This document shows positions 19,671-35,855 of a stretch of DNA of 64,000 bases, piece after piece (positions within the stretch are counted from its first letter, which is position 1; every line of letters begins with the position of its first letter). Position numbers and translations under genes: made by a program. The notes below the pieces were generated by a model. It did not search any database. It was not told the origin of the DNA and saw only the letters and a program-made list of their open reading frames with translations. This DNA comes from Prevotella sp. (GTDB lineage Bacteria; Bacteroidota; Bacteroidia; Bacteroidales; Bacteroidaceae): contig JALETQ010000018.1 in NCBI GenBank assembly GCA_022781445.1, forward strand, positions 323 to 64,322, read 5' to 3'.

Positions 19671-21080
19671 TTACAGGTCTCTGCCGGGACGTAATGCCTC
19701 TGCATCGTCATAGCAAAGTACGGCGTTACAGAGCGTTGCGGCAAGGTTGCTGCCTCCCTTTCTGCCCTCCACGATGATTTTGGGTATGTGAACGAAAGGT
19801 TTGGTCATGTGTTTCGACTCACGGACGTGGACAAATCCCACGGGTGCGGCAACGATGCCGGCAGGTCTCGCCTTGCCCTTGCGGATGAGTTCGCACAGCT
19901 CCATGAGTGCCGTCGGGGCATTGCCGAAAGCGAAAAGTGCATCGGGATGCTCTTCGACGGCCAGCCTGATGCCGGCCTGCGTGCGTGTGATGTTTTGCGA
20001 GGCGGCCAGTTCTGCCACGCGTTCGTCGGCCAGATAGCATTTCGCGTCGATGCCCAATCGTTCCAAAGCACCTTTGCGGATGCCGCTCCTGACCATGGTC
20101 ACATCGGTCACGATGGTTTTCAGCGAGCCGTCTTTTACCTTATTATATAATCTTTCGACTGCCTTGTCGTCGGTGTGCAGAATGTTTTCCATGTCAAAAT
20201 CGGCGGTGGTGTGGATGGCATGGAGCAAGGCCCATTTGTGATCGAGGGGATAATCGTGGCGTGACAGTTCCTTCTCGATGGTCCTGAAGCTCTCGATCAT
20301 GATGCTCTGTCCGGGCTTTTCGCCCTCACCGGCGGCCTCGTTGTAGTATCCGCGCGGGGTAATCATCTTGCCGTTGCGGATGAATGTCTGCGAGTTTCCG
20401 ATGATGACAACCGTAAACATGTCGGTGTCTTCGGGGTCGAAGTCGGCAAGTGAAGTAATCTTCACTTCCTGTTCGTCGCGTCCCGCCTGACGGACGTAGC
20501 CCACGGGCGTGCTTTCGGCTCTGCCGTTTTGCAGCAACAGCTCTTTCATGCGGCACAACTGCCAGTAGCGGCCGTGGCTCTTGGGGTTGTAGACCGCTGT
20601 GATGAAGTCGCCGACGGCAGCGGCCGTGATGCGTTTTTCGATTCTTTCCCAAGGTGTCATGAGGTCGCTGAGCGAGATGATGCACAGGTCGTGACCGATG
20701 GGTGCGCCCAGCAGTGAGGCCGCTTTTTGGAAAGCCGAGATGCCCGGCAGGCAGATGATCTCGACATCGGTACCCCTTTCCTCTGCCATTTCGAAGATGA
20801 GGGGAGCCATGCCGTATATGCCGGCATCGCCCGAGCTGATCACTGCCACGCACTTTCCGCCTTCAGCCTGCTCGAAAGCCTGCCTTGCGCGGTCGCGCTC
20901 GCGGGTCATTCCCGTTGCCACCTGTTCGGCTTCGGGCTTCATGTAAGTTTCGATGAATTGGAAGTAATACTTGTATCCCACCACGACATCTGCCTCTCTG
21001 ATGGCTTCGATGGCAGCGGGGGTGATGTCTTCCCTGCTGCCCGGTCCGATGCCGACAATGGTTATCTTTGATTTTTTCAT
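19671..21080 (-). CDS. cbiHC: Fused precorrin-3B/cobalt-factor-III C17-methyltransferase (CbiH) and precorrin-8X methylmutase (CbiC)
   Basis: 469 aa. The N-terminus KITIVGIGPGSREDITPAA...SSGDAGIYGMA...PGISAF is CbiH-type. The C-terminal part, about 200 aa, HTTADFD...FGNAPTAL...GGS is CbiC-type. Confidence 0.85.
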   Translation of the reverse strand: MKKSKITIVGIGPGSREDITPAAIEAIREADVVVGYKYYFQFIETYMKPEAEQVATGMTRERDRARQAFEQAEGGKCVAVISSGDAGIYGMAPLIFEMAEERGTDVEIICLPGISAFQKAASLLGAPIGHDLCIISLSDLMTPWERIEKRITAAAVGDFITAVYNPKSHGRYWQLCRMKELLLQNGRAESTPVGYVRQAGRDEQEVKITSLADFDPEDTDMFTVVIIGNSQTFIRNGKMITPRGYYNEAAGEGEKPGQSIMIESFRTIEKELSRHDYPLDHKWALLHAIHTTADFDMENILHTDDKAVERLYNKVKDGSLKTIVTDVTMVRSGIRKGALERLGIDAKCYLADERVAELAASQNITRTQAGIRLAVEEHPDALFAFGNAPTALMELCELIRKGKARPAGIVAAPVGFVHVRESKHMTKPFVHIPKIIVEGRKGGSNLAATLCNAVLCYDDAEALRPGRDL

Positions 21081-21327: not shown

Positions 21328-21569
21328 TGTCCTAACATCAGTTCGGGCTGACGACGGTTTCGTTTCGATATTGGTGTATGTTGTTATATATATGGTTGTT
21401 GGGTGGTTGTCAAATTTGTCTTTGCTTTGCCCGTTCCTGCTTGTCGTTTTGTGACCCTCGCAACGATATTCCTCTCCGAATGGTGAAGTCAAGCGTGCTT
21501 AATAAGTTAATAAATATAAAACAATTGCGTTTTATTTCGCATTTATTTGGTTTATGATATAAACTACAT

Positions 21570-21577
21570 TATATTTG
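21570..21577 (+). promoter_or_regulatory. -7 box TATATTTG facing the duplicated membrane-protein gene
   Basis: TATATTTGCAA on the plus strand, about 105 nt upstream of duplication copy 1. Confidence 0.4.
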
Positions 21578-21674
21578 CAACCGTAATCGATCATGAAGCC
21601 GAAGCTTGTCGATGGCACTGGCGGTCGGCACGTTCGTCCTCACGGGATATGGGGAAGCGCGCATCCGGTATGGC

Positions 21675-22289
21675 GGCAGAGGACGATCAATGACGGCCGA
21701 TAAAGAAGCGGCCGTCAGCAACAGGATCAGTAAACTTAAAAAATTGCAGAACAAATGGAAACAACCAATGAAATGACTGCCGGGCGCAGTCTTGAAATTA
21801 TCAGTCGAACCATCGGGCAAAGTCGTCGCTCGATGAAAAGAATGCAGGTATGCCGATGGTGATATGGAGCTTGCCGGTGGCACTCACAGTCTTGACCGTG
21901 AGTCATCTTTGGCAGCACAATGGCGGCCCGGTATGGAATTTTTTGTGGGGCGTGTTTTGGATCTTCGGAATGATTGCCGAGGCAGAGGATGATCAATGAC
22001 GGCCGATGAAGAAGCGGCTGTCGGCAAACAAGAATAGTAAACTTAAAAAATTGCAGAACAAATGGAAACAACCAATGAAATGACTGCCGAGCGCAGTCTT
22101 GAAATTATCAGTCGAACCATCGAGCAAAGTCGTCGCTCGATGGAAAAGAATGCAGGTATGCCGATGGTGATATGGGGCGTGCTGGTGGCACTCACAGCCT
22201 TGATTGTGGGTCATCTTTGGCAGCACAATGGCGGCCCGGTATGGAATTTTTTGTGGGGCGTGTTTTGGATCTTCGGAATGATTGCCGAG
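21675..22289. repeat. Tandem duplication, 307 + 308 bp, diverged by roughly 20 substitutions plus a 1-bp indel
   Basis: Copy 1 is 21675..21981 and copy 2 is 21982..22289. Each starts GCAGAGGA(C/T)GATCAATGACGGCCGAT and ends GGAATGATTGCCGAG. Each contains 80 bp of upstream sequence plus the first 228 bp of the METTNEMTA... ORF. Confidence 0.9.
21755..21981 (+). pseudogene. Frameshifted 5-prime fragment (duplicate) of the downstream membrane-protein gene
   Basis: ATG at 21755 encodes METTNEMTAGRSLEIISRTIGQSRRSM. A 1-bp deletion (GATG-AAAAG versus GATGGAAAAG in copy 2) then shifts the frame into a TGA after about 34 codons. Confidence 0.6.
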
Positions 22290-22703
22290 AAACTGCTCGT
22301 CCGTCATAAAGAAAAAGTACCCGTTTCGTTCGTCGGCAAGACCATCTCTCACGTGTGGCTCACGTTCGGAATCTTCTGTATGTTCATCGGTTTGGGACTC
22401 GGTCTCGTGGCGGGCGGTTTCTTTCACCTGCCCATATCTGTTCCCCATACCCGTCTCTTTGTGCCTGTCACGTCTTTCATCATTGCCATGTTCGGTCTGG
22501 GCAGTGCAATCACCGGATTCATCTTGCGCAACTACTGGATCGTGGGTTGCGGCTTGGTGAGCGGCGTCATAGGCTTCTATGTTGCCTTGATCTGTCCCGG
22601 AGCCTCCCAAATGGTGGTGCTTGCCTGCGTGTCGGTGGTGGGACTGGTCATTCCGGGTATCATCGTCAATCTTCAAACGCATTCGTCATGTTCAAATCTT
22701 TAG
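22062..22703 (+). CDS. Integral membrane protein of unknown function (partner of the downstream wHTH regulator)
   Basis: 213 aa with about 5 hydrophobic helices. It overlaps the start of the regulator gene by 16 nt. Confidence 0.6.
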   Translation: METTNEMTAERSLEIISRTIEQSRRSMEKNAGMPMVIWGVLVALTALIVGHLWQHNGGPVWNFLWGVFWIFGMIAEKLLVRHKEKVPVSFVGKTISHVWLTFGIFCMFIGLGLGLVAGGFFHLPISVPHTRLFVPVTSFIIAMFGLGSAITGFILRNYWIVGCGLVSGVIGFYVALICPGASQMVVLACVSVVGLVIPGIIVNLQTHSSCSNL

Positions 22704-22981
22704 ACCCTTTGCTTCACAGTGAGCTTCGTTTGGCGGTGATGTCGTTGCTTCTCGATACCGAGGAAGCCGACTTCGTGTATCTCAAGGAGCAGACGAAAGC
22801 CACGGCAGGCAATCTCAGTGTGCAGCTCGACAAACTGTCGGCGGCGGGCTATATCACGGTCGCCAAGACCTTCAGCGGCAAGAAACCGCGTACCGTCTGT
22901 CGCATCACGTCCGAAGGATTTGCCGCATTTGAACAATATGTCGAGGCTTTGAAAACCTATCTTGTACACGACAAGAAATAG
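22688..22981 (+). CDS. Small winged-helix transcriptional regulator
   Basis: 97 aa from the ATG at 22688: MFKSLDPLLHSELRLAVMSLLLDTEEADFVYLKEQTKATAGNLSVQLDKLSAAGYI... This is a typical wHTH pattern. The track ORF starting at 22355 is an out-of-gene extension. Confidence 0.7.
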   Translation: MFKSLDPLLHSELRLAVMSLLLDTEEADFVYLKEQTKATAGNLSVQLDKLSAAGYITVAKTFSGKKPRTVCRITSEGFAAFEQYVEALKTYLVHDKK

Positions 22982-23036
22982 AAAGGTGCGGCAGATTGCT
23001 TCGGCCGGCTCGCCTTCGACCATCCGTTCTTTCTGT

Positions 23037-23120
23037 CGGGGAACATCTTTGTCCGGTAGTCCGAGGTCGCTTGCCGACCGGACGACAAGCGGGGCAGGAT
23101 GTTCCCCGATGGTTTTCTTT
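23037..23120 (+). terminator. Nested hairpin between convergent genes (regulator gene and btuC-like gene)
   Basis: Outer stem CGGGGAACATC (23037..23047) with GATGTTCCCCG (23098..23108). Inner stem GTCCGGT/ACCGGAC. Followed by GGTTTTCTTTCC. Confidence 0.45.
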
Positions 23121-23140
23121 CCGTCGGTCGACGGAGACGG

Positions 23141-24181
23141 TCATTCGCGGAAATCGTCCTTGCGCCTTCTGAACAGCACCGAGGCAATGATGGGGGCACC
23201 CACGAGGGCGGTCACGCTGTTGACCGGTAAGGCTCCGTCGAATCCCGGCATACGGGCGAGGAGGTTGCACAGCAATGCCAGCGACGTGCCTACGAGCATG
23301 GTGCCCGGCAAAAGGATGCGATGATCCGACGTTCTGAACAGCGCACGGGCGAGATGAGGCACAGCCAGACCGATGAACATCACCGGGCCGCAGTAGGCGG
23401 TAACGATGGCTACGAGGATGCCCGAGCTGCCGATGACCATCCAGCGGGCGCGCCTGAGGTTCAGGCCGAGGTTGCGTGCATAGGCATCTCCCAGCAAAAG
23501 GAGGTTCAGCATCTTCACGGTGAGCATGCTCAACGGCAGCAGCACAACCAGCATCAGGACGATGAAGAGAATCATCTGGTCGCCCGATACCCTCGAAAAA
23601 CTGCCCAGTCCCCACACGACGTATGCCTTGACATCTTCCTCGGAGCTGAAAAACTTGAGGACACCGATGACGGCATTGGCCAAATAGCCTATCATCACAC
23701 CGATGATGAGCAGCGTGACATTGCCCTTCACCTTGCTCGAAATGTAGACGATGAGTGCCAGAATGGCAAACGAACCGCCCACGGCGGCTATCGAAATGGC
23801 TGCATCGCCAAGGTAACCGAGCTTGCTGAGCGTGACACCACCCAGCGAACCCGACAGCAAGACGACGAACGCCACGCCGAGGCAGGCTCCGTTGGAAATG
23901 CCGAGTACCGACGGTCCGGCCAGCGGATTGCGGAAGAAAGTCTGCATTTGCAGTCCGCTCACCGCCAGTCCGGCACCGGCTGCCACGGCTGTAAGGGCCT
24001 GCGGCACCCTCGAAGAGAGGATGATGTTGCTCCAAACCTCATTGTCGTGATAGATTCCCATCAGGATGCGACACACGACAGTGGCGGGAATGGAGATGGT
24101 GCCGAGCAGTAAGTTGAGTACAAACAACACGACCGTCGAGACGGCGAGCAGGATAAATAAAGGAAAGAAGCGCACGCTCAT
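23141..24181 (-). CDS. FecCD/BtuC-family ABC transporter permease
   Basis: 346 aa, about 9-10 TM helices, FecCD-type sequence (LLLGTISIP..., GVALSGLQMQ-like region, LPVNSVTALVGAPI). A 4-nt overlap links it to the upstream binding-protein gene. Confidence 0.85.
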   Translation of the reverse strand: MSVRFFPLFILLAVSTVVLFVLNLLLGTISIPATVVCRILMGIYHDNEVWSNIILSSRVPQALTAVAAGAGLAVSGLQMQTFFRNPLAGPSVLGISNGACLGVAFVVLLSGSLGGVTLSKLGYLGDAAISIAAVGGSFAILALIVYISSKVKGNVTLLIIGVMIGYLANAVIGVLKFFSSEEDVKAYVVWGLGSFSRVSGDQMILFIVLMLVVLLPLSMLTVKMLNLLLLGDAYARNLGLNLRRARWMVIGSSGILVAIVTAYCGPVMFIGLAVPHLARALFRTSDHRILLPGTMLVGTSLALLCNLLARMPGFDGALPVNSVTALVGAPIIASVLFRRRKDDFRE

Positions 24182-25401
24182 TTCATTAAATGGTAGTACT
24201 TCGGACGGTAATCGCGCGGCATGACTTCGGGATGGAAGATGAATACCAAGTCGGCGAGCAGCGCATCGGGTTCGACGGGCGACGATTCGTAATAGGGAGT
24301 GTACTTCATGTTGCAGTAGATGACCCCTTTCTTCTTGAAAGCGTCGAAGAGGGCATAGCGCGGTTCGGCACTTTTCAGAGCCTCGTAGCTGAACTTCCCG
24401 GGATACGAATTGAGTATTCGCCAGTAGTCGGCATGAGCTGCTGCTGCATAAAGGGCTTCAAATTCCATCTGAATCGTTCCGGTGTTGTGGTCGCTGATGA
24501 CGTAGTTGGCACCGGCATCGCGGAAGATCTGGGCGAGGAAATTCTGCGAACCGATGGCCGACCAGTTGCCTCCGTGCATCTCTCCGCTGAAAATCGTGGG
24601 ACGGTTGGTGGTGGCTTTCACTTGCTCCTTGAGGTTGTTGTAACGTTCTTCTATGGCTTTGAAACGGCTGTTGGCTTCTTTCTCCTTGCCGACGAACATG
24701 CCTACGAGCTTTAACCATTCGGCCTGGCCGAGCGGATGCAGCTCTTTACTGCCCAGATGGGGAATGAGCGTGATGCCCGTTTCTTTCAAAACGTCATATC
24801 CTCCGCGCTTGAACGGCGAGATGAAGATGACGTCGGGCTGTGCTGCCATGATGAGTTCGGGGTCGCAGTTGCCTTCCATGCCAATCTTGACGATGCCCCC
24901 CCGTTTCACACCTTCGAGGATTTCCTTGTTGAAAAGGTTCTTCGTTCCGGTGATGCCCTTCACCACATCGAGTGAATGGAGGGCGGTGAAGTTCGACAAT
25001 TGGATGGCGGTCATGACGATGGTGCGCCTGATGGGCACTTCCACCCGGGTGTATCCGGCAGGCACTTCTGCCTTGACGCCGCGCGGAACGAGGGCAAAGC
25101 GGTAGTTGTCGGCCATGTAATTGGACTTGATGGTGCCTTTTTTGTTTTCCGTCGGAGTACCGTCTTTCTTATGGTGTCGCTTGACGTGCTTCTGCGGGTC
25201 GGCTATTTCGACCAGCCGGACACCGTTGTCGAGGTATTTCACTTTGAAGCCTTGTGCGTAGACCGGGGCGATGCGGGCTGCCGAATCCATGATGGCCGCC
25301 ACGTCGGCTTTACCTTCAGCTCCCTTGTCGGCACTGTGTCGGCAGGCCGTCGTGCCCAGCAGAAGGGCTGTCGAGAGCAGAGTGAGAATGATTTTCTTCA
25401 T
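24178..25401 (-). CDS. BtuF/FhuD-type periplasmic substrate-binding lipoprotein of an ABC importer
   Basis: Start taken at MKKIILTLLSTALLLGTTAC (lipobox, ATG 25401); 407 aa. Cluster-A SBP features: RIVMTAIQL...LD.VKGITG, PDVIFISPF. Confidence 0.8.
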   Translation of the reverse strand: MKKIILTLLSTALLLGTTACRHSADKGAEGKADVAAIMDSAARIAPVYAQGFKVKYLDNGVRLVEIADPQKHVKRHHKKDGTPTENKKGTIKSNYMADNYRFALVPRGVKAEVPAGYTRVEVPIRRTIVMTAIQLSNFTALHSLDVVKGITGTKNLFNKEILEGVKRGGIVKIGMEGNCDPELIMAAQPDVIFISPFKRGGYDVLKETGITLIPHLGSKELHPLGQAEWLKLVGMFVGKEKEANSRFKAIEERYNNLKEQVKATTNRPTIFSGEMHGGNWSAIGSQNFLAQIFRDAGANYVISDHNTGTIQMEFEALYAAAAHADYWRILNSYPGKFSYEALKSAEPRYALFDAFKKKGVIYCNMKYTPYYESSPVEPDALLADLVFIFHPEVMPRDYRPKYYHLMK

Positions 25402-25411
25402 GATGAGTAGG

Positions 25412-26893
25412 TTAATGTGTGGATGATTGTCTGTTTTTCCGAAAGCGTTTGCCGACTTTTCGCCGCAGGTATTTCCACCCCAAGACGGTGCCTGTGAGGG
25501 TGACGACGGCACCTCCGATGCACAAAATCCAGATGACGACCGTCCAAAGCACGGGGCGCGACGTGAGAAAATGGATGTTCAGGTAATGTATTCCGCTGAA
25601 TACCCATTTGCGGACACGCTTGTTGTTGTCGAACATACGGGTGCTGCCGTTCTTCGGATTGACATAATACGTGGTATGGTCTTCATCGTTTACATCGATG
25701 CGATACACCGGCAAGGCCATCATGCCGTGGCGAGACAGATAGTAGTTGTCGTAATCGTGCATCAACTCTACGGCCATCGTGGTTTGCGGTCCGTGCAGAC
25801 GCTTGACGTTATCCATGATGAGTTGCTTGTCGAGCGACAGCTCTTTGGGCTGTGAACCCCTTGCGTCGATGTAACGTTCTTTCTTGCCTTCGGCGATGAT
25901 ATACACCGGAATGGTGTCCACACCCGACCATTCGACCGACTTCAAGTCGGGATAGGCCGAGCGCAACTGGCGGTAGTCCAGCCGGTATTCGTTCAGCGGC
26001 CGCATGGATTGAACCAGCAAATCCTCGTCGGAATCCTTGTGAACGGCTTTCACCGGTACCAGCCAACGGGGAATTTTCTGCATGGCCATCATGCCGCTCA
26101 GTCCCCATGCGATGACAAAAATGCCGAAGACAAGCCCGAACCAATAGTGCCATCGGTGGGAAAAGGTCTTGTAGGGACATCCTCCCCGGCGGTTGCGGCG
26201 ACGGTGTCTGAGCCATATCGAGATGCCCACATACAACCCGCTGAGGGCTGCCAGCAGACAAAAGGCGCCTCCGACGGTGATGGTCCACTTCCACACGTCG
26301 GCATCTTTGCGGATGAACGGGAAGTATAGTTTATGCGGAATGGCCCCCACCCATGCCCACATACGTTGCGAACGGGTGGTGGACTGCAGCACTTCGGCGG
26401 TGCGCGACGACACGAATATCTGATGTCTTTCGTCGTCGTCGAAGCTGAAACGGTAAATGGGCAGCTCCCTTTCGTAGCGGCTGTAGAGTACCCATTGCGC
26501 CCTTTCGCGGAGCGTGTCGACGGCCATGATGTTGCCTTTGCTCCATCGGCGGGCCTCGTTTTCGGCAAGGGCGAAGTCGACCGGCAACGGACGAAGGGCC
26601 GTGTCGGCACAGAAGGTATAGGACGAGTCGCCCTTGGCAACGCTGAACACAGCCCTGCCACCCTTCATCGACAGCGAGAGCCGGGTACAGGTGTCGGGCA
26701 AGTGCGACGACAAGCCGGCTATATCGGGCAGCGATGCAGGCAGGACTTCGAGGTGACTTCTCAGGTCGCGATCCGAAACTTTGGGATAATCATGGTATAG
26801 AAGTACCAATCCCGTGACAAACCACATGAAGAACAAGGCGGCTGCCGCGACACCGGTGATGCGGTGAAGGCTACTCATGAATCGTTTGAACAT
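25412..26893 (-). CDS. PepSY-associated TM-helix protein (PiuB/FoxB-like)
   Basis: 493 aa. N-terminus LHRITGVAAAALFFMWFVTGLVL, further HKL/HRW-containing TM helices and large periplasmic loops, typical of the PepSY_TM family. Confidence 0.8.
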   Translation of the reverse strand: MFKRFMSSLHRITGVAAAALFFMWFVTGLVLLYHDYPKVSDRDLRSHLEVLPASLPDIAGLSSHLPDTCTRLSLSMKGGRAVFSVAKGDSSYTFCADTALRPLPVDFALAENEARRWSKGNIMAVDTLRERAQWVLYSRYERELPIYRFSFDDDERHQIFVSSRTAEVLQSTTRSQRMWAWVGAIPHKLYFPFIRKDADVWKWTITVGGAFCLLAALSGLYVGISIWLRHRRRNRRGGCPYKTFSHRWHYWFGLVFGIFVIAWGLSGMMAMQKIPRWLVPVKAVHKDSDEDLLVQSMRPLNEYRLDYRQLRSAYPDLKSVEWSGVDTIPVYIIAEGKKERYIDARGSQPKELSLDKQLIMDNVKRLHGPQTTMAVELMHDYDNYYLSRHGMMALPVYRIDVNDEDHTTYYVNPKNGSTRMFDNNKRVRKWVFSGIHYLNIHFLTSRPVLWTVVIWILCIGGAVVTLTGTVLGWKYLRRKVGKRFRKNRQSSTH

Positions 26894-27014
26894 ATATTAC
26901 GATGGCTGAACGGATGAAAAATGACGGGGTGTTTCGTTGTGAACGATGATGTGACGAAAGGAAAGAAAGGAAGCGACACCCCAGGGGGCATCCCTTCCTT
27001 CCGAACCTTTGATT

Positions 27015-28319
27015 TTATTGGTTGTTCACATATACGATACGGTTGAACTCATATCCTTCGGCGATGGTGGCTCCCTTGACGGTCTTGCCGGTACGGCTGT
27101 CGTACACATAGATGCAGGGATTGCCTTTTTTGGGGTTCACGCCGATGAACACCTTGCCTCCCAATACGAACGAACGCTGTGAGAACGTGCCGCTGCTGAA
27201 CGGCAGAAGCGTGCCTTGACATTCTATTTCGCTGAGGCGATCGGTGGCGATGTCATAGATGGCATAGTAGCAGTTGTAGTCGTTTCCCCATCCTTTCTTC
27301 AGTTTGGGGTCGCTGCTGAGTCCCGTCTTCACGGGGTCTTGGATGTAGAGAATGGCTTTGTTGTTGCCGATGTAGTCGCAGGTGACGATCTTGCCGGTGA
27401 ACTCTGTCATCTTGAAGCCGGTGTAAGCGGTGTCGAATTCCTTGCTTCCGGCTTTGATGCGGACGATGCGGCTGTAGGCACAGGTCGACGTTTCGCTGCC
27501 GGGAATCCGGCTCACCAGCGGCACATACAGGTTGTCTTGGTCGTCGAAGAAGGCTTTGCTTTGCAGCAATTCGCCGTAGGCCGAGCCTGCAAGGTCTTCA
27601 CCTACGGTGGTGGAGGTCACGTTTTCGACCTTCATGTCGGCAGGGTTGATGAGGGCGGCATAGACTCTCTTTTCGCCGTTTTTGTGCTTTTCGCTGTAGA
27701 GATAGATGATCTTGTTGTCCTTACTGCGGTATTTGGCAATGCCCGAGGTGCTGTAGGTTTTCACTTGCGGAGTCTTCTCGGGCAGTCCCAGCGCGCCTTC
27801 GGCAATGATGCTCATGTCATCGGTGTTGATCTTTGTCCAGATCACGTCGTTCTTGTCGCCGTTGGCCGCCATGATGACGAGCGTGTTGCCATTGATGAAA
27901 GTGTGCGTGTAGCGGCGGTCGAGATAGGTGTTCTTGGCAAAAGGACGCTCGGCAACGGTGACGATATTGCCGTTCTCGATGGTGTATTTGCCGAATCTGT
28001 CTTTCTCGCGGGGTATCTGATAGTAGTAGCGGCCTTTGATGATCGATTCCTGATAGAGCTTGGCCGTCACGTCGGCACCTTGGTTCTTGAAGTCGATGAT
28101 GCCTTCGTCCGACAGCGAGGGCACGTTCTTGACCACAAGGGCTGCTCCCGAGCCCATGCCGCCCGATTCGCCTACGCTCACCCAAACGTCGAAATGGACT
28201 TTCGAGAATACGTCGTCCGTACCGGGTGTGGGGTTGTCGTTGTTGTCCGAACAGGCGGAGAAGTTGAGGCATGTCAGCATGGCCATGGAGGCAAGCAGCA
28301 TTGATTTGATTGTTTTCAT
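27015..28319 (-). CDS. Surface lipoprotein, beta-propeller-like (DUF4374/XusB-position protein; family tentative)
   Basis: 434 aa. Lipoprotein signal MKTIKSMLLASMAMLTCLNFSACSDNNDN. Repetitive beta-strand-rich sequence. It sits between a TonB receptor and a PepSY protein, as DUF4374 proteins do in Bacteroides. Confidence 0.55.
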   Translation of the reverse strand: MKTIKSMLLASMAMLTCLNFSACSDNNDNPTPGTDDVFSKVHFDVWVSVGESGGMGSGAALVVKNVPSLSDEGIIDFKNQGADVTAKLYQESIIKGRYYYQIPREKDRFGKYTIENGNIVTVAERPFAKNTYLDRRYTHTFINGNTLVIMAANGDKNDVIWTKINTDDMSIIAEGALGLPEKTPQVKTYSTSGIAKYRSKDNKIIYLYSEKHKNGEKRVYAALINPADMKVENVTSTTVGEDLAGSAYGELLQSKAFFDDQDNLYVPLVSRIPGSETSTCAYSRIVRIKAGSKEFDTAYTGFKMTEFTGKIVTCDYIGNNKAILYIQDPVKTGLSSDPKLKKGWGNDYNCYYAIYDIATDRLSEIECQGTLLPFSSGTFSQRSFVLGGKVFIGVNPKKGNPCIYVYDSRTGKTVKGATIAEGYEFNRIVYVNNQ

Positions 28320-28337
28320 GATGTTGATGGTTTGTTG

Positions 28338-30479
28338 TTAGTGTATGAATAATCTGAATTTGCACATGATTTGTCTGCCGGGCTTCTGCATTCTGAAGTT
28401 GTCGAAGGCGGTCCGGTCGAAGAGATTGTCGCATTCGAGCGAGAGGTTGTAGCGCATTTGTTTCCACGAATAGGTGATGGAAGCCGTATGGATGTGCTGC
28501 GTGGGGATGCGGTCCTTGGACGACAGGGTGCCGTATCCTTCCCATGTGAGGAAAAACCAATGGGTGTAATGGTAGTTGTAGTCGAAGCGCAAGGCGGTGC
28601 CGGCGATGCCGAAGAGGTCGCGGCGGGTAATGCTCAACTCGGCATTGCCGAAGAGCCACGGACGGTTGGGTACGTCGTTGCGGTAGGTCACCGAGGGTTT
28701 GCCGTCGGCCTTGTACCGGTTTTGGTCGACCGACTTCTGATAGGTGAGGTTGGTCGTCAGCTCGATGAAGTCCCTGTAGCGGTATTTCAGTTCGCCCTCC
28801 ACGCCCTTCATGTCGACGTTGCGCACGTTGTCGTACTGCAGCATGCCTTCCGATGCCGACAGGACGGGATAGATGAAATCCTTGACATGGCGGTAGAAAG
28901 CCGACAGGTCGTAGCCGATGCTGTGGTCGTCGCCGCCGAAACGCATCTCGCCATACAGACCTGCATTGATGTTGTTTCCCGTTTCGGGGCGCAGGGCGAG
29001 GTTGGCGTAGACGGTGGTTCCGTTGCCCAGCAGCTCGCGGGCGAGCGGAAGGCGTGCCGTATGCTCGAACGATGCCTTGAGCGAGAGTAGGGGAGAGAAG
29101 GTGAAGCGGCTGCCGATGCCATAGCCCGGATAGTGCTTGGTGGCCTGACGGTCGATCGTTCCGGCGTTGGTGATCCACGAAAGGTCGTTCTGGTGTATGT
29201 TCACGTGGTTGATATAGTCCTTCAGAAACACCATGTTCACCCATCTGCCGTCCATGAGTTGTTGGTCGAACGAAAGTCCGATGACGTGTTTGGTCAGCCG
29301 GTCGTCGGTCGGGACGAAGTCGGCATCGAGGTCATCGCGCCGTCGGTTGCCCTGACGGGTCATCACATAGTTGAGGTTGAGGGAGCGGGTGGCCGAGAAC
29401 TTGTAGTTCCAGTTGGTGCGCAGCAGCAGCAGGGGGCGTTCGATGTGGCGCAGCTGGCGTGCCCTGCCGGTAATCTCGTTGCGCGTGGTGGTGATGTAAG
29501 TGCGGTCCCAGCGGTATTTGCGGTATGCCGAATCGACCACCAGACTGTGGTCGTGGGTGAACGACACGAAGGCGTTCAAGGCAAGGCGCGGCAGCAGGAA
29601 TCCCTCTTTCCGGTAGCGTGCCGACACACTCCAGCGGTCTTGCCGGCGTTCGGCTTCGCCATACACCACGCTTTGGGTCTGCCCGGTCTGCAGTTCCTTG
29701 CGCACCCCGTTGTAGTAGAACGACACGAAGCAGGCGTCTGTCCAAGACTTGTTTTCAAAGCCGGCCTCCAGCTGTCCGCTCCACGAACGGTAGGCATCGT
29801 GGAAGCGTTTGACCTGCCGGTTGACATACCTGCCCGTCTCCTCGTCCCACAGCTCGATGTCTTTCATCGTGTAGTTGTTCTTCGAATAGTCGGCGCGGAA
29901 CGACGGCTGAAGCACGAGTCCCGAACCTTGAAGCACGAAGCGGCCCGAGAAGTCGCCGCACAGGGTGTTGAACGAGCCGCCCGTCACCGAGGCGTCGACG
30001 AAATTGTTTCTTGATTTCTTGGTCACGATGTTGACGGCCCCGCCCAGGGCATCGGTGCCCAGATAGGCAGGGACGACGCCTTTGTAGACCTCGACGTGGT
30101 GGATGATGTTGACGGGAATGGTTGAAAGGGCCGATTCGGCGCCACGCGTTTCCAGCGGCACCCCGTCGATGAAGTAGCGGACGGCATTGCCCGACAGGCC
30201 GTTGATGGACAAGTCGATGTCGGCACCCAGCCCTCCCTCGCGACGCACACGCACGCCCGTCGAGCGGTCGAGCAGGGTGTTGAGGTCGGTGAGGGTGTTT
30301 GCCTGCGCGCCGATGCGGATGGCATTGACGTTGAAGGCACCGTCGTGGACGCGTCTGACACGGTTCTTGCCATACACGTGAACCGACTTGAGGGTGATGG
30401 TGTCCGGCATTTCGGCTTGCGGAAATGCGGCGACGGGCATAATGAAGAATGCCAGCCCGAGTAAGAATGAACGTACCAT
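28338..30479 (-). CDS. TonB-dependent outer-membrane receptor (riboswitch-controlled, BtuB-like role)
   Basis: 713 aa. Signal peptide, plug domain (GVRVRREGGLGADIDLSINGLSGNAVRYFIDGVPL), barrel, C-terminal ...CKFRLFIH. Directly preceded by a cobalamin riboswitch. Confidence 0.85.
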   Translation of the reverse strand: MVRSFLLGLAFFIMPVAAFPQAEMPDTITLKSVHVYGKNRVRRVHDGAFNVNAIRIGAQANTLTDLNTLLDRSTGVRVRREGGLGADIDLSINGLSGNAVRYFIDGVPLETRGAESALSTIPVNIIHHVEVYKGVVPAYLGTDALGGAVNIVTKKSRNNFVDASVTGGSFNTLCGDFSGRFVLQGSGLVLQPSFRADYSKNNYTMKDIELWDEETGRYVNRQVKRFHDAYRSWSGQLEAGFENKSWTDACFVSFYYNGVRKELQTGQTQSVVYGEAERRQDRWSVSARYRKEGFLLPRLALNAFVSFTHDHSLVVDSAYRKYRWDRTYITTTRNEITGRARQLRHIERPLLLLRTNWNYKFSATRSLNLNYVMTRQGNRRRDDLDADFVPTDDRLTKHVIGLSFDQQLMDGRWVNMVFLKDYINHVNIHQNDLSWITNAGTIDRQATKHYPGYGIGSRFTFSPLLSLKASFEHTARLPLARELLGNGTTVYANLALRPETGNNINAGLYGEMRFGGDDHSIGYDLSAFYRHVKDFIYPVLSASEGMLQYDNVRNVDMKGVEGELKYRYRDFIELTTNLTYQKSVDQNRYKADGKPSVTYRNDVPNRPWLFGNAELSITRRDLFGIAGTALRFDYNYHYTHWFFLTWEGYGTLSSKDRIPTQHIHTASITYSWKQMRYNLSLECDNLFDRTAFDNFRMQKPGRQIMCKFRLFIH

Positions 30480-30520
30480 AAGAATATTATATTGAGGCTC
30501 TTGACCCGAGAACCCATTAT

Positions 30521-30690
30521 CGTTGAACCGGCAGGTCTTCTGACTCGCTCTATCATCAACGCCTTCCCGTCAATAGGACAGTGGCCGTGTGGTCGATGAA
30601 ACAAAGAGCTTACAGCAGCGGGTACTGTTCAGGATTTGCACCTGATTCCCTTTTTCTCCCTGTCGGTTGGCAACCGGCAGGAACCAAATT
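30521..30690 (-). promoter_or_regulatory. Cobalamin (B12) riboswitch
   Basis: The minus-strand RNA carries all core elements in order: AGGGAAUCAGGUGCAAAUCCUGAACAGUACCCGCUGCUGUAA, GGCCACUG, GGGAAGG and the B12 box GAGUCAGAAGACCUGCC (plus-strand 30530..30546). It ends about 40 nt before the receptor ATG at 30479. Confidence 0.85.
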
Positions 30691-30951
30691 CGGCCGCAAA
30701 GGTAATCATTCTTTCCTTGACAATCAAATATTTTGACGTGTTTTCCCTTACTGTTGTCCGTCTTCCGCCTCGAATCCGGTGTAGCTTGCCTGCGTCTTCC
30801 GCTTGTTCTTTCCCGACAAATCCCACTTGTTTTGCTCATGTTCCCATTCTCTTGGTTGTCAGAGCCTGTCGGACACTGCAAGGCAGATGCGTTATTGGTT
30901 GCGGTGTCGGCAGATATTCCTCAGGGTTTCAGGGCACGTTACATTGCGTCG

Positions 30952-31415: not shown

Positions 31416-32945
31416 TTATCGATAGTCGGCATGTTGCGGATCGAACTCGGTCCATCCGTCGAGCCAGTTGTCGCCGGCATGGAAGGCTCCGATATAGGGC
31501 ACTTTCGTGAACCAGCCGTTGAGCAGGGTGTGGTTGAAGGCGGCTGCCGTGAGCAGGGGGCTTCCTTGGGCGGGCATGAACCCGTTGAGCAGCAGCTGGC
31601 CGAGGTCTTCGACGTAGCGGTTGCCGCTTTGGGCGAGGAAGTAGGTCGAGGAGAACGAGCGTTGGCTGTAGTCGAAGACGTTGGGCTTGCCGTATTCGAT
31701 GAGGAGCGCGTCTTCATAGACTTTGTTGCCGTCGGTTCCCACCACGTCCATGTCGGCAAACCAGATGTTGTTGAGGGTCATGTTGCCGTCTTTTGCGTTG
31801 CCCTGCGTATTGCCTTTCTCGTTGTCGAGAATCAGGCCGACGGGGAATCCGGCGGCAACGGAGTTGAAGCAGTTCAGGCGCGTGTTGCGACGCAGGTGCA
31901 TGGCGGCCTGGAACTTGCCGAGGGCCGAGCCGTTGTTGGGGAAGAGGTCACCGCCGTTGATGTAGTCGGTGTTGTTCTGGAACGAGGGATCCGCCTTGGG
32001 GCCGATGAAGGTGATGTTTGAGAAAGTGGCAGCGGTGAAGGGCAGGATGTTGCTGCCGTCGGCACTGTTGTCGCTTTCGAAGCCGTTGCTTTGCGAACCG
32101 TCGGCGATGCGCGGGTCGCGGATCACGAGGCCGAACTGCACTTTGCCCGAGTAGCCGTTGTCGGTGTCGAAGTCGTCATCCCATCCTTTGTATGCCACGA
32201 GATATTTGGCATTGACCGTACCGCCGAACCATTCGTAGGAGTCGTCGTTGGAGTAGCTCACCTGTATGTGGTCGACCGTTGTGCCGCTGCCGACGCTTCC
32301 GAAGGTGAGCCCGTTGATTTCCTTGTCCTTCTGGAAGGGATAGCCGGCAAACTCGATACGGACGTAGCTCAGCACACCCGAGTTGTCCTGGTCGTCGTTT
32401 CCGCCGTGCTTGGTGCGCGGACCGCCTTCGATCTGCATTTCCTTCTGGTTGTTGAGGGCGTTGCCGCAGAGGATGATTCCGCCCCAGTCGCCGGGCTTGC
32501 GCTGTCCCTTCTCCTGTTCGGAGGTGAAGACGATGGGTTGGGTGGGTGTACCTTGAGCGAAGAGCTTGCCGCCCCGTTCGACGATGAGTGCGGCCTTGGT
32601 GTCTTTGTCGCCTTTGATGACGGTACCGGGTTCGATGGTCAGTTCGGCACCTTTACCCACATAGACCCATCCTTTGAGGAGATAAGTGCCTTTCTTGAGG
32701 GTTTGCTTGCCGGTGAAGACGATTTCCTGGTCACCGTTTCCGATTTCTTTTCCGTTGGGGTCTGCTTTACCGTCGGTGAACAATATGCGGTTGCAGGCCT
32801 TGATTCCCGCATCGGTCGACCACACATATTCGTCGCCGGGCTTGACCGAAGGGGTGTCGGTGTCGTTGTTGTCGTCACTGCATGCTACCACCGTCAGTGC
32901 GATGGCGAGAAGCCCGAGGGCTTTCCATTGGTTCATTTTTTTCAT
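31416..32945 (-). CDS. Surface lipoprotein of unknown function, beta-helix-like repeats, partner of the upstream TonB receptor
   Basis: Start at MKKMNQWKALGLLAIALTVVACSDDNN (lipobox, ATG 32945); 509 aa. Contains GDWGGIILCG, VDHIQVSYSNDDSYEWFGG and DDDFDTDNGYSG. No family name could be confidently recalled. Confidence 0.6.
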   Translation of the reverse strand: MKKMNQWKALGLLAIALTVVACSDDNNDTDTPSVKPGDEYVWSTDAGIKACNRILFTDGKADPNGKEIGNGDQEIVFTGKQTLKKGTYLLKGWVYVGKGAELTIEPGTVIKGDKDTKAALIVERGGKLFAQGTPTQPIVFTSEQEKGQRKPGDWGGIILCGNALNNQKEMQIEGGPRTKHGGNDDQDNSGVLSYVRIEFAGYPFQKDKEINGLTFGSVGSGTTVDHIQVSYSNDDSYEWFGGTVNAKYLVAYKGWDDDFDTDNGYSGKVQFGLVIRDPRIADGSQSNGFESDNSADGSNILPFTAATFSNITFIGPKADPSFQNNTDYINGGDLFPNNGSALGKFQAAMHLRRNTRLNCFNSVAAGFPVGLILDNEKGNTQGNAKDGNMTLNNIWFADMDVVGTDGNKVYEDALLIEYGKPNVFDYSQRSFSSTYFLAQSGNRYVEDLGQLLLNGFMPAQGSPLLTAAAFNHTLLNGWFTKVPYIGAFHAGDNWLDGWTEFDPQHADYR

Positions 32946-33031
32946 ACTTGTTCTGGTTAATAACATCCTGATTGTTCCTTTTATGTGTTCCTCTTGGCGA
33001 GGCTGCTTGTTGATGGAATGGGCAGTGGGTA

Positions 33032-35824
33032 TCAGAAGTTGTAGGTAACGCTGAATCCCATGTTCCTGCCCGGTTTGTACTGACGCGTTATCTGGTCGAT
33101 TTCCTTCTGCCGTCCGTCGGGATAGCTCACTTCGGCAATCTGTTTGTAGGTCACTTTCTGCGCGAAGAGGTCTTTGATGTAGGCTTTGGCTTCCCAGTGC
33201 CTGCCGAACTTCTTGGAGACGGTGATGTCGATCATGTCGCGGGGCATTTCGTAGCTGTCGGGAATGCGGGCGTTTTCATCGCTGCCGGTGGTGCCTTCCG
33301 AACGTCCCACACCGATGATGCGCTTGCCGATGCGGTTATAGAGCAAGGCTATGCTGAGTTGTTGGGGGTCGTTGCGGTAGAAGAGTCCGGTGTTGATCAG
33401 ATAGGGGCTTTGTCCCTGCATGGGGCGGTTGCTCTCCTTTGCTCCGGCGGGGAAATTGACGCGGCTGTGAATCAGCGAGCCGTTGAACGACCAGCTGAGG
33501 AAGGGCAGGCCGATGAAGTCGAGGTTCTTGCGCACGTCGAGTTCCAGTCCGATGGCGTTCGCACTCTGTGCATTCTTGTACGAGTAGATGAGGTCGGTTC
33601 CGCCGGCGACGGTGTAAGTCCATTCGATGGGCGAATCGAAGTGCTTGAAGAAGGCAGCGAGCGACACCGTTTCGCCTTTGGAGGGATAGAATTCGTAGCG
33701 CAGGTCGATGTTGTGGATGTAGCTCGGCTTGAGCTCGGTGTTGCCCTGCACGCTCGAAGCGAGGTCGAAGTCGTAGTAAACGCTCGAGGATACTTCTCGA
33801 AACTCGGGCCGGTTGATGCTCTTGCCGTAGGAGAAACGCACCTGATGCCTGTCGTCGGCACGGTAATTGGCACTGACGGAAGGGAAGAGGTCGTTGTAGG
33901 TGTAGAACGTGCTGAGCGGACTCTTCTCGTAGTCTCGTGTGTTGGAGATGAGTTCCATGCGGCTATGCTCGAAGCGTATGCCGGCATGGATGTCGAATTT
34001 GCCGAGGGGAAGCGAGGTCGTGACATAGCCGGCACCCATACGGTTGTTGCCTTCGTAGTGGTTTCTGTAGCGCACCTGTTCGAGCATGTAGAGCTTGTCC
34101 TCTCCGAAGAAATCATCGGTGGAGAGCAGCTCGGTGATGTCGATGTGGCGGAAGTCGTATGGAAGACTGTTGTTCACCGCGTTCCAGTTGTAGATGAATT
34201 CGCGGGTTTTGTACCTGCGGGTGCGGTATTCGCCATAAGCACCGAATCGGATGGTGGGATCGAAGCTCTTGAAATGTAGGTCGTAACGATGGCTGACGTT
34301 GAGCGAGATGATGTGTTCGTCGAGCTTTGTCCATTCGCGCGAAATGTCGTTTCCTGTCGAAAGTCCCATCACACCGGCCTCGAGGGCGTCGTCTTGGAGG
34401 TAACGCCGGCGGTCGGGCAGGTGACGGTTGGCGTAGGCATAGCCCACGCTCCAGTCGGTTTCATGGTCTTCCGTGGTGTGCTTGCCGCTGATTTGGGTGT
34501 TGATGGTGGTGCGGCTGCGGTAATAGTATTCGGCACTCTGTTCGCTGTCCGACTGGGCATTGACCCCTTTTCGCCATGTGTAGCGGTTGTTGCCCAACTG
34601 ATTGAAGATGTTTTTCCACTCCACTTTGTGCATGCCGTTGCCCGAAAGCCATGTGAGGTTGGCCATCGCACCGATGCGGGAGTTGTGGTTGTACTGGTTG
34701 TCGATGCTGTGGCGGAGGTACACGCTGCGGTCGTTCACCACGTCATAGATGCCGAAGAGATTGTTGGCCATGTCGGTGTGGCTCCGATAGTCGTTGCTGT
34801 AGTTCATCAGGGCGATGAGTCCGAGCTTGCTCCCCTTGATGTCCCAACGCCAGTTCCAGCTCAGGGTGAGCTTCATGTCGGGCAGAGCCTTGTTCTTGTT
34901 CACCTTCCAGTCGTTGTTCAAACCGTTGTCCAGCAGGTTTACACCACTGTTGGTAAAGGTGTTGAGACGGCTGTCGATGCCGCCGTCGAGAGATCTCTTG
35001 CCGTTGTCGAAGCCGAGGAAGTCGGTTCCCGAGCCGCTCGAATAACGGAAGTCCTTCGATGTGGTGACATCATTCCAGTTACCGCCCAGACTGATGTTGA
35101 AAGCGTTTTGCGAGGGAATGTCTTTGGTTCTGATGAGGATGAAGCCGCCGCTGTAGTCGGCAGGGTATTCGGCCGACGGTGTCTTGATGATGGTGAGCCG
35201 GTCGATTTGTCCCGATGGAATGATGTCGAAGGAGAAGGCTCGGCTGTCGGCTTCCGAACTCGGCACGGCTCCACCGTTGATCCATACGTTGTTGTACCGT
35301 TGCGACAGGCCACGCACCATGACGAATTTGTCGTCAATGAGGCTCACGCCCGGCACGCGACGGATGACTTCGCCGGCATTGGAGTCTTGCGAGCGTTGGA
35401 TTTCCTGTGCCGAGATGTTGCTCACGATGAAGTTGCTGCGTTGCAACTCTTCAATCATCGCGGTCTGCGTGTTGGCTTTTTTCATGCCAGTTACCGATAC
35501 TTCGCCGATGCTCTTGCTGTCGGGTTGCAACGCGAAAGTCACCGTTTGGGGCGACTTGGAAGCCACGATGCCTTTGAGTGTGAGGGGCAGGTAGCCGATG
35601 TATTTGATGGTGACGGCATATTTCCTGCCTTCGGTCAGTCCGCTCATCCTGAAGTTGCCGTCGAGGTCGGTCACACCGAGTGCCTGAATTTCGTCGATCG
35701 AGACGGTGGCACCGATGAGCGTCTCGCCCGTTTGTTTGTCGATTACTTTTCCTGCAATGTCTTGGGCTTGGGCTGCCGTCATGCCGGCGAGCAACGCCAA
35801 GGCTGTCAATCCTTTTTTCATCAT
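33032..35824 (-). CDS. TonB-dependent receptor with N-terminal carboxypeptidase-regulatory-like domain
   Basis: About 930 aa. Signal MMKKGLTALALLAGMTAAQAQ, then DIAGKVIDKQTGETLIGATVSI...DLDGNF (CarbopepD_reg-like), a plug (GVSLIDDKFVMVRGLSQRYNNVWINGG), a barrel, and C-terminal ...GFSVTYNF. The track ORF start at 35851 lies only 5 nt from the -7 box, so Met10/11 is preferred. Confidence 0.85.
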   Translation of the reverse strand: MMKKGLTALALLAGMTAAQAQDIAGKVIDKQTGETLIGATVSIDEIQALGVTDLDGNFRMSGLTEGRKYAVTIKYIGYLPLTLKGIVASKSPQTVTFALQPDSKSIGEVSVTGMKKANTQTAMIEELQRSNFIVSNISAQEIQRSQDSNAGEVIRRVPGVSLIDDKFVMVRGLSQRYNNVWINGGAVPSSEADSRAFSFDIIPSGQIDRLTIIKTPSAEYPADYSGGFILIRTKDIPSQNAFNISLGGNWNDVTTSKDFRYSSGSGTDFLGFDNGKRSLDGGIDSRLNTFTNSGVNLLDNGLNNDWKVNKNKALPDMKLTLSWNWRWDIKGSKLGLIALMNYSNDYRSHTDMANNLFGIYDVVNDRSVYLRHSIDNQYNHNSRIGAMANLTWLSGNGMHKVEWKNIFNQLGNNRYTWRKGVNAQSDSEQSAEYYYRSRTTINTQISGKHTTEDHETDWSVGYAYANRHLPDRRRYLQDDALEAGVMGLSTGNDISREWTKLDEHIISLNVSHRYDLHFKSFDPTIRFGAYGEYRTRRYKTREFIYNWNAVNNSLPYDFRHIDITELLSTDDFFGEDKLYMLEQVRYRNHYEGNNRMGAGYVTTSLPLGKFDIHAGIRFEHSRMELISNTRDYEKSPLSTFYTYNDLFPSVSANYRADDRHQVRFSYGKSINRPEFREVSSSVYYDFDLASSVQGNTELKPSYIHNIDLRYEFYPSKGETVSLAAFFKHFDSPIEWTYTVAGGTDLIYSYKNAQSANAIGLELDVRKNLDFIGLPFLSWSFNGSLIHSRVNFPAGAKESNRPMQGQSPYLINTGLFYRNDPQQLSIALLYNRIGKRIIGVGRSEGTTGSDENARIPDSYEMPRDMIDITVSKKFGRHWEAKAYIKDLFAQKVTYKQIAEVSYPDGRQKEIDQITRQYKPGRNMGFSVTYNF

Positions 35825-35855
35825 AGTCATTTCTTGCACTTTTGTTTTCACGCTG

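Follow-up and report, generated by a model that had tools for sequence, protein, structure and literature searches.

A Xus-type outer-membrane module behind a cobalamin riboswitch in Prevotella and other Bacteroidales

Corrinoid uptake in Bacteroidales normally proceeds via BtuB-BtuG, and loci of the type BtuB-BtuG(-BtuFCD) combine regulation linked to vitamin B12 with a TonB-dependent receptor that is covered by a beta-propeller lid of the DUF5074/YncE type. The xenosiderophore system XusABC (BT2065/2064/2063; a XusB is also known from Bacteroides fragilis) consists of a receptor, a DUF4374 lipoprotein and a PepSY protein, and BT2063-65 are induced 489-676-fold by iron depletion (PMC10434189); in the structural work on XusAB, DUF4374 neighbours of receptors together with PepSY were considered ‘likely genuine xenosiderophore systems’ (PMC13142918). 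Here, we analyzed a window of 64,000 nucleotides (64 kb, the whole stretch of DNA under study) from the Prevotella contig JALETQ010000018.1, in which a cobalamin riboswitch is followed by five genes that start with the three-gene architecture of XusABC, in the same order. This operon has in common with BtuB-BtuG loci the B12-linked regulation and the logic of a receptor with a beta-propeller lid, but its lid belongs to DUF4374, it contains a PepSY_TM component, which BtuBG loci do not have, and it has no ATPase.

Further described systems share single aspects with the locus. In FoxA-FoxB of Pseudomonas aeruginosa, the gene of the PF03929-family protein stands beside that of a TonB-dependent receptor, as in the window, while the regulon is that of iron instead of B12. 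The cobalt transporters CbiMNQO and CbtAB are alike in their B12-riboswitch logic and in their placement in cbi operons, but they have no sequence relationship to the genes described here and move the free ion through the inner membrane, as opposed to the outer-membrane chelate receptor, lid and reductase that the window appears to encode. IhtABCDE of Porphyromonas gingivalis, which comprises a receptor, the CbiK-like surface lipoprotein IhtB and an ABC (ATP-binding cassette) importer, was interpreted as a haem/iron system with no riboswitch stated (PMC12094164); it differs from the window in that no CbiK and no second receptor occur in the latter.

We propose that the module is very probably a Xus-type capture-import-reduce unit that is part of the B12 regulon, as opposed to a system of iron homeostasis, because a riboswitch is linked to it in every informative locus (65 of 65) and because of its linkage to corrin-ring genes. 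It most likely serves the anaerobic corrin-ring (B12) pathway. With parts and architecture already known, the novelty lies in the regulon and, by implication, in the cargo. All statements on cargo and mechanism are drawn from homology and gene context.

The riboswitch and the five genes behind it

A sequence-only reading of this stretch had placed a B12 riboswitch at 30521..30690. The Rfam covariance model located it at 30513..30690 on the minus strand, with 98.2 bits (RF00174; gathering threshold 31.5 bits, E-value 2.6e-23) over model positions 1-189, and this aptamer was the sole riboswitch found by the Rfam scan of the whole window. Its position upstream of the operon was predicted correctly, while the gap of about 40 nt given at that time measures 33 nt, counted to the receptor start codon (ATG at 30479) on the same strand. 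A terminator scan of the leader found no intrinsic terminator 3' of the aptamer, and the computed leader fold does not stand out (z = -0.42).

Downstream of the riboswitch, five intact minus-strand open reading frames (ORFs) follow each other with gaps of 18, 121, 10, and -4 nt (Table 1), and the coordinates that had been assigned to them were all confirmed. In operon order, they were assigned by Pfam to Plug, DUF4374, PepSY_TM, Peripla_BP_2, and FecCD, and copies that are 99-100% identical occur in independent metagenomes. No ABC ATPase was found in the operon or elsewhere in the 64 kb.

Table 1. Features of the window, with positions counted from its first nucleotide; the riboswitch operon comes first, followed by the remaining features
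Feature	Positions	Strand	Basis and remarks
Cobalamin riboswitch aptamer	30513..30690	-	Rfam RF00174, full-length
Candidate -7 promoter box, Bacteroidetes-type, TAccTTTG	30697..30704	-	From sequence; immediately 5' of the aptamer; predicted function
XusA-family TonB-dependent receptor, 713 amino acids	28338..30479	-	Plug domain (Pfam); full-length XusA homology
XusB-like (DUF4374) beta-propeller surface lipoprotein	27015..28319	-	PF14298, 28.3 bits (cut-off 25)
PepSY_TM inner-membrane protein, FoxB-like, 493 amino acids	25412..26893	-	PF03929, 75 bits (cut-off 28.8)
Class-III (Peripla_BP_2) substrate-binding lipoprotein, BtuF/FhuD-like	24178..25401	-	PF01497, 70.8 bits
FecCD-family type-II ABC permease, BtuC-like	23141..24181	-	PF01032, 226.7 bits
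GC-rich hairpin followed by a T-rich stretch	26975..26992	-	Terminator-like consensus match in the 121-nt gap between lipoprotein and PepSY genes; weak evidence
HTH_34 regulator gene of the insert	22688..22981	+	HTH_34
Membrane-protein gene of the insert	22062..22703	+	ORF
cbiH/C	19671..21080	-	Pfam, NCBIfam; anaerobic corrin-ring gene
cbiE/T	18347..19561	-	Pfam, NCBIfam; anaerobic corrin-ring gene
cbiG/F	16542..18350	-	Pfam, NCBIfam; anaerobic corrin-ring gene
cbiJ/D	14640..16463	-	Pfam, NCBIfam; anaerobic corrin-ring gene
TonB receptor of the upstream pair	33032..35851	-	CarboxypepD_reg + OMP_b-brl_3
Beta-helix protein of the upstream pair	31416..32966	-	PF28492 in the identical contig L079
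tRNA gene	13101-13174	+	
tRNA gene	58811-58898	-	

The resemblance of the first three genes to XusABC, which the sequence-only reading had pointed out, was borne out by the sequence of the receptor and by the folds of its two partners. The receptor is homologous to XusA of Bacteroides thetaiotaomicron over its full length (PDB 9gbc_A, residues 33-711, E-value 8.7e-91 in the PDB sequence search), with roughly one third of the residues identical as judged by eye from the alignment; it differs from XusA, and from most of its own orthologues, by the lack of an N-terminal CarboxypepD_reg domain. The best NCBIfam match is the model of MxcH-type siderophore receptors, with 460 bits and thus below its cut-off. 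BtuB was ruled out as the identity of this protein, since the similarity is confined to the plug: the BtuB models TIGR01779 and PRK10641 matched the plug only, with 70 bits (cut-off 600) and 64 bits (cut-off 836), respectively, and the BtuB chains in PDB align solely to residues 64-158.

The lipoprotein, presumed to be the lid and ligand catcher, has a lipobox cysteine (Cys23) followed by SDNNDN, an acidic surface-export signal of the kind also present in XusB, and both lipobox cysteine and acidic signal are kept in 67 of the 73 orthologues. Its family profile matches the XusB structure 9hqe (E-value 9e-10, PDB profile search). Structure predictions were made with AlphaFold2 from alignments of database homologues, and the lipoprotein model (predicted local distance difference test score, pLDDT, 85.4; predicted template modelling score 0.85) found its best Foldseek match in the hook-less XusB of B. 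fragilis with ferrichrome (9hqk; E-value 9.5e-18, template modelling (TM) scores 0.69/0.78), with BtuG1 far behind (0.52/0.38). A true BtuG, encoded in the Prevotella locus L074, matches the structures 8blw_B and 8ptf by sequence, whereas the family profile of the window lipoprotein does not. A canonical BtuG, which the sequence-only reading had left as a possible outcome, was accordingly ruled out, as the protein groups with XusB in Pfam (DUF4374 above its cut-off), in the profile search of PDB and in the comparison of folds.

The lipoprotein is just 16-17% identical to XusB, and the ligand-site residues that are invariant in its clade are others. In the XusB of B. fragilis, ferrichrome is contacted by W323 and D352-G354 (PMC13142918), which align with W344 and G377-T-F-S-Q-R382 of the window lipoprotein; the latter are clade-invariant and differ from those of XusB. 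The two lids probably use the same ligand site, and the differences, invariant within the clade, suggest a different ligand for the one described here.

The PepSY_TM protein is a putative haem-dependent periplasmic reductase by analogy. Its family has three invariant histidines (H187, H249, and H436) and two that are nearly invariant (H10 and H34); these candidate haem ligands lie in or beside membrane helices of the AlphaFold2 model. In the model (pLDDT 85.8), the transmembrane helices are long and two beta domains of the PepSY type lie in the periplasm, and its sole significant fold match in PDB is FoxB (7abw; E-value 3.8e-6, probability 1.00, TM scores 0.33/0.43). Neither the sequence nor the family profile matched any PDB entry, FoxB included, and the relationship between the two proteins is accordingly based on Pfam and on a fold match of low TM score. 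The window protein further differs from FoxB by its larger size and by the two PepSY-type domains.

The last two genes had been called BtuF- and BtuC-like. Their assignment to the Peripla_BP_2 and FecCD types stood, while the corrinoid-specific names seem to go too far, given that the curated cut-offs were missed and no ATPase is present. The best PDB matches of the binding protein are siderophore-binding proteins, and they are weak (E-value 5e-7); NCBIfam gave no curated BtuF call for it. The permease matched best the NCBIfam BtuC model PRK03784, with 187 bits against a cut-off of 334. Both proteins have close relatives in the Prevotella BtuB-BtuG locus, which carries two tandem pairs of binding protein and permease (29% and 51% identical between the pairs): the window binding protein is 65% and the permease 76% identical to the second of these pairs in L074. 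A standalone orthologue of binding protein and permease is preceded by its own riboswitch, and in 15 related loci the permease is followed by an ABC ATPase. The Prevotella BtuB-BtuG locus itself (L074; L081 at 4762-12180) has no ATPase and abuts leu genes, with a lone cbiJ/D gene in convergent orientation; no riboswitch was detected at this locus.

Related loci and exported chelatase homologues

Homologues of the lipoprotein were aligned, and with this alignment 73 loci, each from a different species, were retrieved from the genome collection. The carriers comprise Prevotella, Bacteroides gallinarum, B. propionicigenes, Parabacteroides distasonis, Tannerella forsythia ATCC 43037, and Porphyromonas macacae, as well as Dysgonomonas, Proteiniphilum, Odoribacter, Alistipes, Muribaculaceae, Marinilabiliaceae, and Breznakibacter; the closest relative of the window locus is found in a Prevotella metagenome-assembled genome (L001, 71% identity) with the same gene order. 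Riboswitches were searched in these loci with a profile built from Rfam-confirmed examples, and 14 loci were confirmed by Rfam (7 of them as a recheck). A B12 riboswitch on the same strand lies upstream in all 65 loci that retain the region upstream of the receptor; the other eight are uninformative, being cut in or before the receptor, or degenerate. The distance to the receptor is within about 260 nt in 60 of the 65, and in the remaining five only CbiK, the second receptor TBDR2 (see below) with CobN or CbiK, or NrdDG stand in between. Because the same arrangement recurs in 65 out of 65 loci, the association of riboswitch and receptor is far beyond chance. XusABC, in contrast, is iron-controlled, whereas the window module and all informative loci have a B12 riboswitch (Fur-type sites were not searched for).

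A PepSY_TM gene follows that of the lid in 60 of the 73 loci. Genes of the corrin ring (cbiH/C, E/T, G/F, J/D, L) occur within 10 kb in 24 of the 73 and, when only fully flanked loci are considered, in 17 of 35, in many cases as part of one operon. Unlike XusABC, the module is found inside corrin-ring clusters, and a type-II ABC importer and an exported CbiK often come after it. In six loci (L001, L040, L042, L032, L038, and L029), the ring genes come after the uptake genes on the same strand, in one cluster; L040, for instance, reads riboswitch, receptor, lid, PepSY, binding protein, permease, ATPase, cbiH/C, E/T, G/F, J/D. A binding protein, permease or ATPase is encoded nearby in 22 of the 73 loci, and in about 50 of them no ABC importer was found nearby; XusABC likewise has no such importer, its metal being released in the periplasm (PMC13142918). 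No known cobalt transporter and neither cobA nor sirC were seen in the related clusters, while CbiL is present. One cluster of TP_methylase proteins (c34) was considered as CobA/SUMT and ruled out, as NCBIfam identifies it as CbiL.

Homologues of the cobaltochelatase CbiK are recurrent in these loci (L006-L008, L011, L015, L018, L033, L036, L053, L063, L065, L069, and L077, among others), and the gene order PepSY followed by CbiK is frequent. Of the 26 homologues, 25 carry either a signal peptide (e.g., MKTYLL...ICKA|HEG) or a lipobox that is followed by acidic residues for export (e.g., SDDDD), the exception being a fragment of 116 amino acids; the exported proteins include those at the heads of cbiH/C-E/T-G/F-J/D operons and the copy in L077. 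As every full-length homologue in the loci bears an export signal, the sequences suggest that cobalt chelation, or chelatase-like binding, may take place outside the cytoplasm in these Bacteroidales.

CbiK also accompanies a second receptor family, TBDR2, which is unrelated to XusA and BtuB and has its own B12 riboswitch. Its partners are an exported CbiK or a CobN/HmuS-like protein (1,400 amino acids in L033 and L046), and often a second, paralogous PepSY_TM. In an abundant gut species (L077, 4209-16286), one such set consists of riboswitch, TBDR2, exported CbiK, PepSY_TM, cbiH/C, E/T, G/F, and J/D; in a Prevotella TBDR2 directly heads the ring genes, and L085 (9493-18517) and L053 (13854-18207) are likewise among the loci where TBDR2 is under a B12 riboswitch and heads ring-synthesis operons. 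The heads of the ring operons were XusA-like or TBDR2 receptors, and none of the BtuB type was seen among them. With their exported or lipidated CbiK, an ABC importer and often the second PepSY_TM, the TBDR2 sets resemble IhtABCDE, and all of them are under B12 riboswitches; their CbiK may also resemble the periplasmic CbiK of Desulfovibrio.

Two other kinds of genes were observed in the related loci. A nrdD and nrdG pair lies beside the triad behind its own B12 riboswitch in L006/L007 (13066-15948), and in L054 (4673-7588) nrdD and nrdG stand between riboswitch and receptor; such riboswitch-controlled nrdD/nrdG genes are the usual pattern of a B12-independent isozyme. In L042 (16107-17153), L045, L046, and L065, an apgM-like ‘proposed homoserine kinase’ (TIGR02535-type) is located between the ABC ATPase and cbiH/C, and its product might take the place of the L-threonine kinase in the aminopropanol branch.

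Possible cargoes and their significance

As cargo of the module we favour, tentatively, a cobalt chelate, i.e., Co(III) held by a foreign metallophore from which it becomes labile on reduction (‘cobalt piracy’). When adenosylcobalamin is scarce, the riboswitch would permit expression of the operon; the XusB-like lid would catch the small metal chelate and hand it to the XusA-like TonB-dependent barrel, and the FoxB-like PepSY_TM protein would donate electrons to the metal centre of the cargo in the periplasm. The product would then join the B12 pathway as released Co(II) or, alternatively, a cobalt chelate or cobalt tetrapyrrole would be imported via the BtuF/BtuC-like ABC transporter of the operon; any hand-over of the product would be to CbiK or to this ABC importer. 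This cargo is preferred because it requires the smallest change from known chemistry, in which a metal is set free from its chelate by reduction. It would also explain why the reductase is retained, why CbiK comes after PepSY, why some 50 loci manage without an ABC importer and why the module is tied to the only pathway that consumes free cobalt, and it would fill a gap, as these clusters showed no known transporter for this role. In B12 producers, cobalt transporters are commonly under the control of B12 riboswitches, and TonB-dependent cobalt/nickel receptors under such riboswitches were reportedly predicted in the comparative genomics of Rodionov and colleagues.

Several points weigh against a cobalt chelate. 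We know of no cobalt metallophore in the gut or mouth, and cobalt in anoxic habitats is mostly Co(II), for which a reductase is unneeded. The chelate-type ABC importer that follows in the same operon, in the window as well as in about 20 other loci, suggests that an intact chelate or tetrapyrrole enters the cytoplasm, and the orthologues of the window binding protein and permease sit in the corrinoid locus BtuB-BtuG of Prevotella. An exported cobaltochelatase would be better explained if a tetrapyrrole were also present in the periplasm. Finally, the invariant residues of the lid are rich in Tyr, Trp, Arg, and Lys, a composition compatible with a wide range of anionic organic ligands and not indicative of a cobalt complex in particular.

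The sequence-only reading had seen in the operon a system for corrinoid uptake, with the XusB-like lid as the counterpart of BtuG that would catch cobamides or incomplete corrinoids, a XusA-like barrel and BtuF/BtuC-like import, which we consider rather unlikely; the same holds for the function PepSY_TM would then have, the reduction of Co(III) to Co(II), by which, for example, the ligand would be released from the lid or lose its upper ligand. Control by a B12 riboswitch is a hallmark of corrinoid transporters, beta-propeller lids are able to bind corrins (cf. BtuG), and the operon would represent one complete envelope route of receptor, lid, binding protein and permease, in which the permease has BtuC as its best curated match. 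The close orthologues of binding protein and permease directly after BtuB-BtuG (65% and 76%) and the standalone binding-protein orthologue under its own riboswitch speak for the same cargo, and in L002 the order riboswitch, receptor, lid, cbiA, pduO-type adenosyltransferase, cobQ, cobD, cbiB would fit an early corrinoid such as cobyrinate. However, the receptor resembles BtuB in the plug only and the lid has XusB as its nearest fold, most loci have no adjacent ABC importer, and the module would duplicate BtuBG. The strong tie to ring-synthesis genes, in operons headed by XusA-like or TBDR2 receptors instead of BtuB, and the exported CbiK are unexpected for a corrinoid scavenger. Periplasmic corrinoid reduction is without precedent; the sequence-only reading had itself regarded a part of PepSY in corrinoid uptake as not established, and in agreement with this no PepSY partner in B12 uptake and no other link between PepSY and B12 were found in the searchable literature.

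Salvage of a tetrapyrrole precursor (sirohydrochlorin, siroheme or an early cobalt-corrin intermediate), with cobalt inserted outside the cytoplasm, is possible without being probable. We are similarly reserved about its premise, that the carriers are haem auxotrophs unable to make uroporphyrinogen III, and about the route, for which we would not claim much: the riboswitch-controlled receptor and lid would take up the external tetrapyrrole, PepSY_TM would reduce the metal centre or the cobalt, the exported CbiK would exchange or insert cobalt in the periplasm, and the BtuFC-like importer would deliver the product to CbiL, CbiH and later enzymes. Precursor salvage best explains the exported chelatases (25 of 26 CbiK homologues, including the heads of ring operons) and the presence of chelate-type ABC importers between triad and ring genes, and it is consistent with the CobN/HmuS-like and CbiK-like partners of TBDR2 under the same riboswitches as well as with clusters in which CbiL is present and cobA and sirC were not seen. 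Most Bacteroidota lack hemA/L/B/C (PMC13096392), and P. gingivalis has the genes leading from precorrin-2 to B12 and none for making precorrin-2 (cited in PMC6461909); therefore, some outer-membrane importer for a precursor of ~0.8 kDa must exist. Nevertheless, the window has no CbiK, CbiL or second receptor within its 64 kb, sirohydrochlorin and precorrins are labile, and salvage presumes that the genomes of the carriers have no early tetrapyrrole genes or cytoplasmic chelatase. By homology, the XusA/XusB pair is of the siderophore type, and the chelatase-associated TBDR2 would be the more natural tetrapyrrole carrier. The periplasmic CbiK of Desulfovibrio has been linked to haem or iron. An exported CbiK could thus act otherwise than in cobalt insertion, as in the case of the haem/iron-linked IhtB of P. 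gingivalis (PMC12094164).

It is doubtful, and we put it forward with more reserve than any of the above, that haem-auxotrophic Bacteroidales run the first committed step of the B12 ring outside the cytoplasm, so that cobalt and a tetrapyrrole would be imported, PepSY_TM would supply electrons, a periplasmic CbiK would make cobalt-sirohydrochlorin and BtuFC-like import would pass it on to CbiL/CbiH. That cobalt and tetrapyrrole would enter via the XusA/XusB-like pair and via TBDR2 with its CbiK- or CobN-like proteins is an equally questionable part of this scheme. If true, such an extracytoplasmic step would explain the 25-year-old puzzle of P. gingivalis and its relatives, i.e., genes from precorrin-2 to B12 in the absence of precorrin-2 synthesis, and it would give PepSY_TM and XusB-like lids a function outside iron.

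An ordinary ferric-xenosiderophore XusABC that has been wired to B12 status, e.g., in order to supply iron for iron-sulfur enzymes of the pathway or B12-independent isozymes, is very improbable. All three triad proteins are homologous to XusABC/FoxB, the best curated match of the receptor is a siderophore receptor and the best PDB matches of the binding protein are siderophore binders; yet all 65 informative loci have a B12 riboswitch in place of the iron control of XusABC, the module lies within cbi operons, and the lid residues at the ferrichrome-contact positions (W344, G377-T-F-S-Q-R382) are clade-invariant and differ from those of XusB. We regard as extremely unlikely a chance juxtaposition, or a decaying locus whose parts do not function together. 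The missing ATPase, the 2-kb insert with its internal 307-bp duplication that splits the cluster, and the frameshifted genes in a few related loci (e.g., L072 and L068) could be read in this way, but the five ORFs are intact, copies with 99-100% identity exist in independent metagenomes, the match of the riboswitch spans the full model and several families of Bacteroidales share the conserved arrangement.

Only 0.6% of Bacteroidetes are predicted to be capable of complete cobamide synthesis (PMC6461909), and a module whose parts were known so far only from iron piracy is here tied to the rare corrin-ring genes of Bacteroidales. Besides BtuB-BtuG, it is a second conserved outer-membrane module under a B12 riboswitch, occurring in at least 65 species of this order; in gut and oral communities, B12 and its precursors are among the main goods competed for. 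Whatever the cargo, the annotations DUF4374/‘XusB’ and PepSY_TM are not to be read as ‘iron’, nor are riboswitch-linked receptors to be read as ‘BtuB’. The module offers a concrete candidate for the missing supply route of cobalt or precursors in the B12 producers and ‘precursor salvagers’ of the Bacteroidales, and culturable carriers exist. In the searchable full texts, we found no published description of such a system that connects either PepSY or DUF4374 proteins to cobalamin or other cobamides, to riboswitches or to cobalt; reviews of B12 uptake in Bacteroides make no mention of PepSY, and the one paper that notes riboswitch-preceded hmu-like operons does not note the triad of receptor, lid and PepSY.

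Surroundings of the operon

The cbi genes had been described as adjacent to the operon. They do lie nearby, but they are not contiguous with it, as an insert of ~2 kb (21080-23141) with two plus-strand genes parts the permease from cbiH/C. Within the insert, a tandem duplication of ~307 bp (21675-21981 / 21981-22289, 91-95% identical) copies the 5' end of the membrane-protein gene. In L001 the insert is absent, and just a 350-bp spacer separates permease and cbiH/C. The insert may uncouple the cbi genes of the window from the riboswitch; they have a TAccTTTG box of their own near 21110, which also stands 5' of cbiH/C in L001, and no riboswitch. Three direct repeats (AAACCTGCCCTTT...) with a spacing of 22 nt were observed at 21249-21330, ~170-250 nt upstream of cbiH/C, and the equivalent place in L001 (about 15330-15385) shows a different pair of direct repeats. 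These repeats may be regulator-binding sites.

The hairpin in the gap between the lipoprotein and PepSY genes could act as an attenuator, so that the inner-membrane genes would be expressed less than the outer-membrane pair; terminator-like matches are no more numerous in this region than in shuffled sequence.

The rest of the window holds housekeeping genes, among them those of an elongation factor G-like GTPase, serine hydroxymethyltransferase, an aspartate/ornithine carbamoyltransferase-family protein, and a lytic transglycosylase, and no B12-related genes were found among them. Directly upstream of the riboswitch operon, a separate receptor pair without a riboswitch is encoded on the minus strand (31416-35851), which resembles the receptor-lid pair BT4055/BT4056 of Price et al. 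2023.

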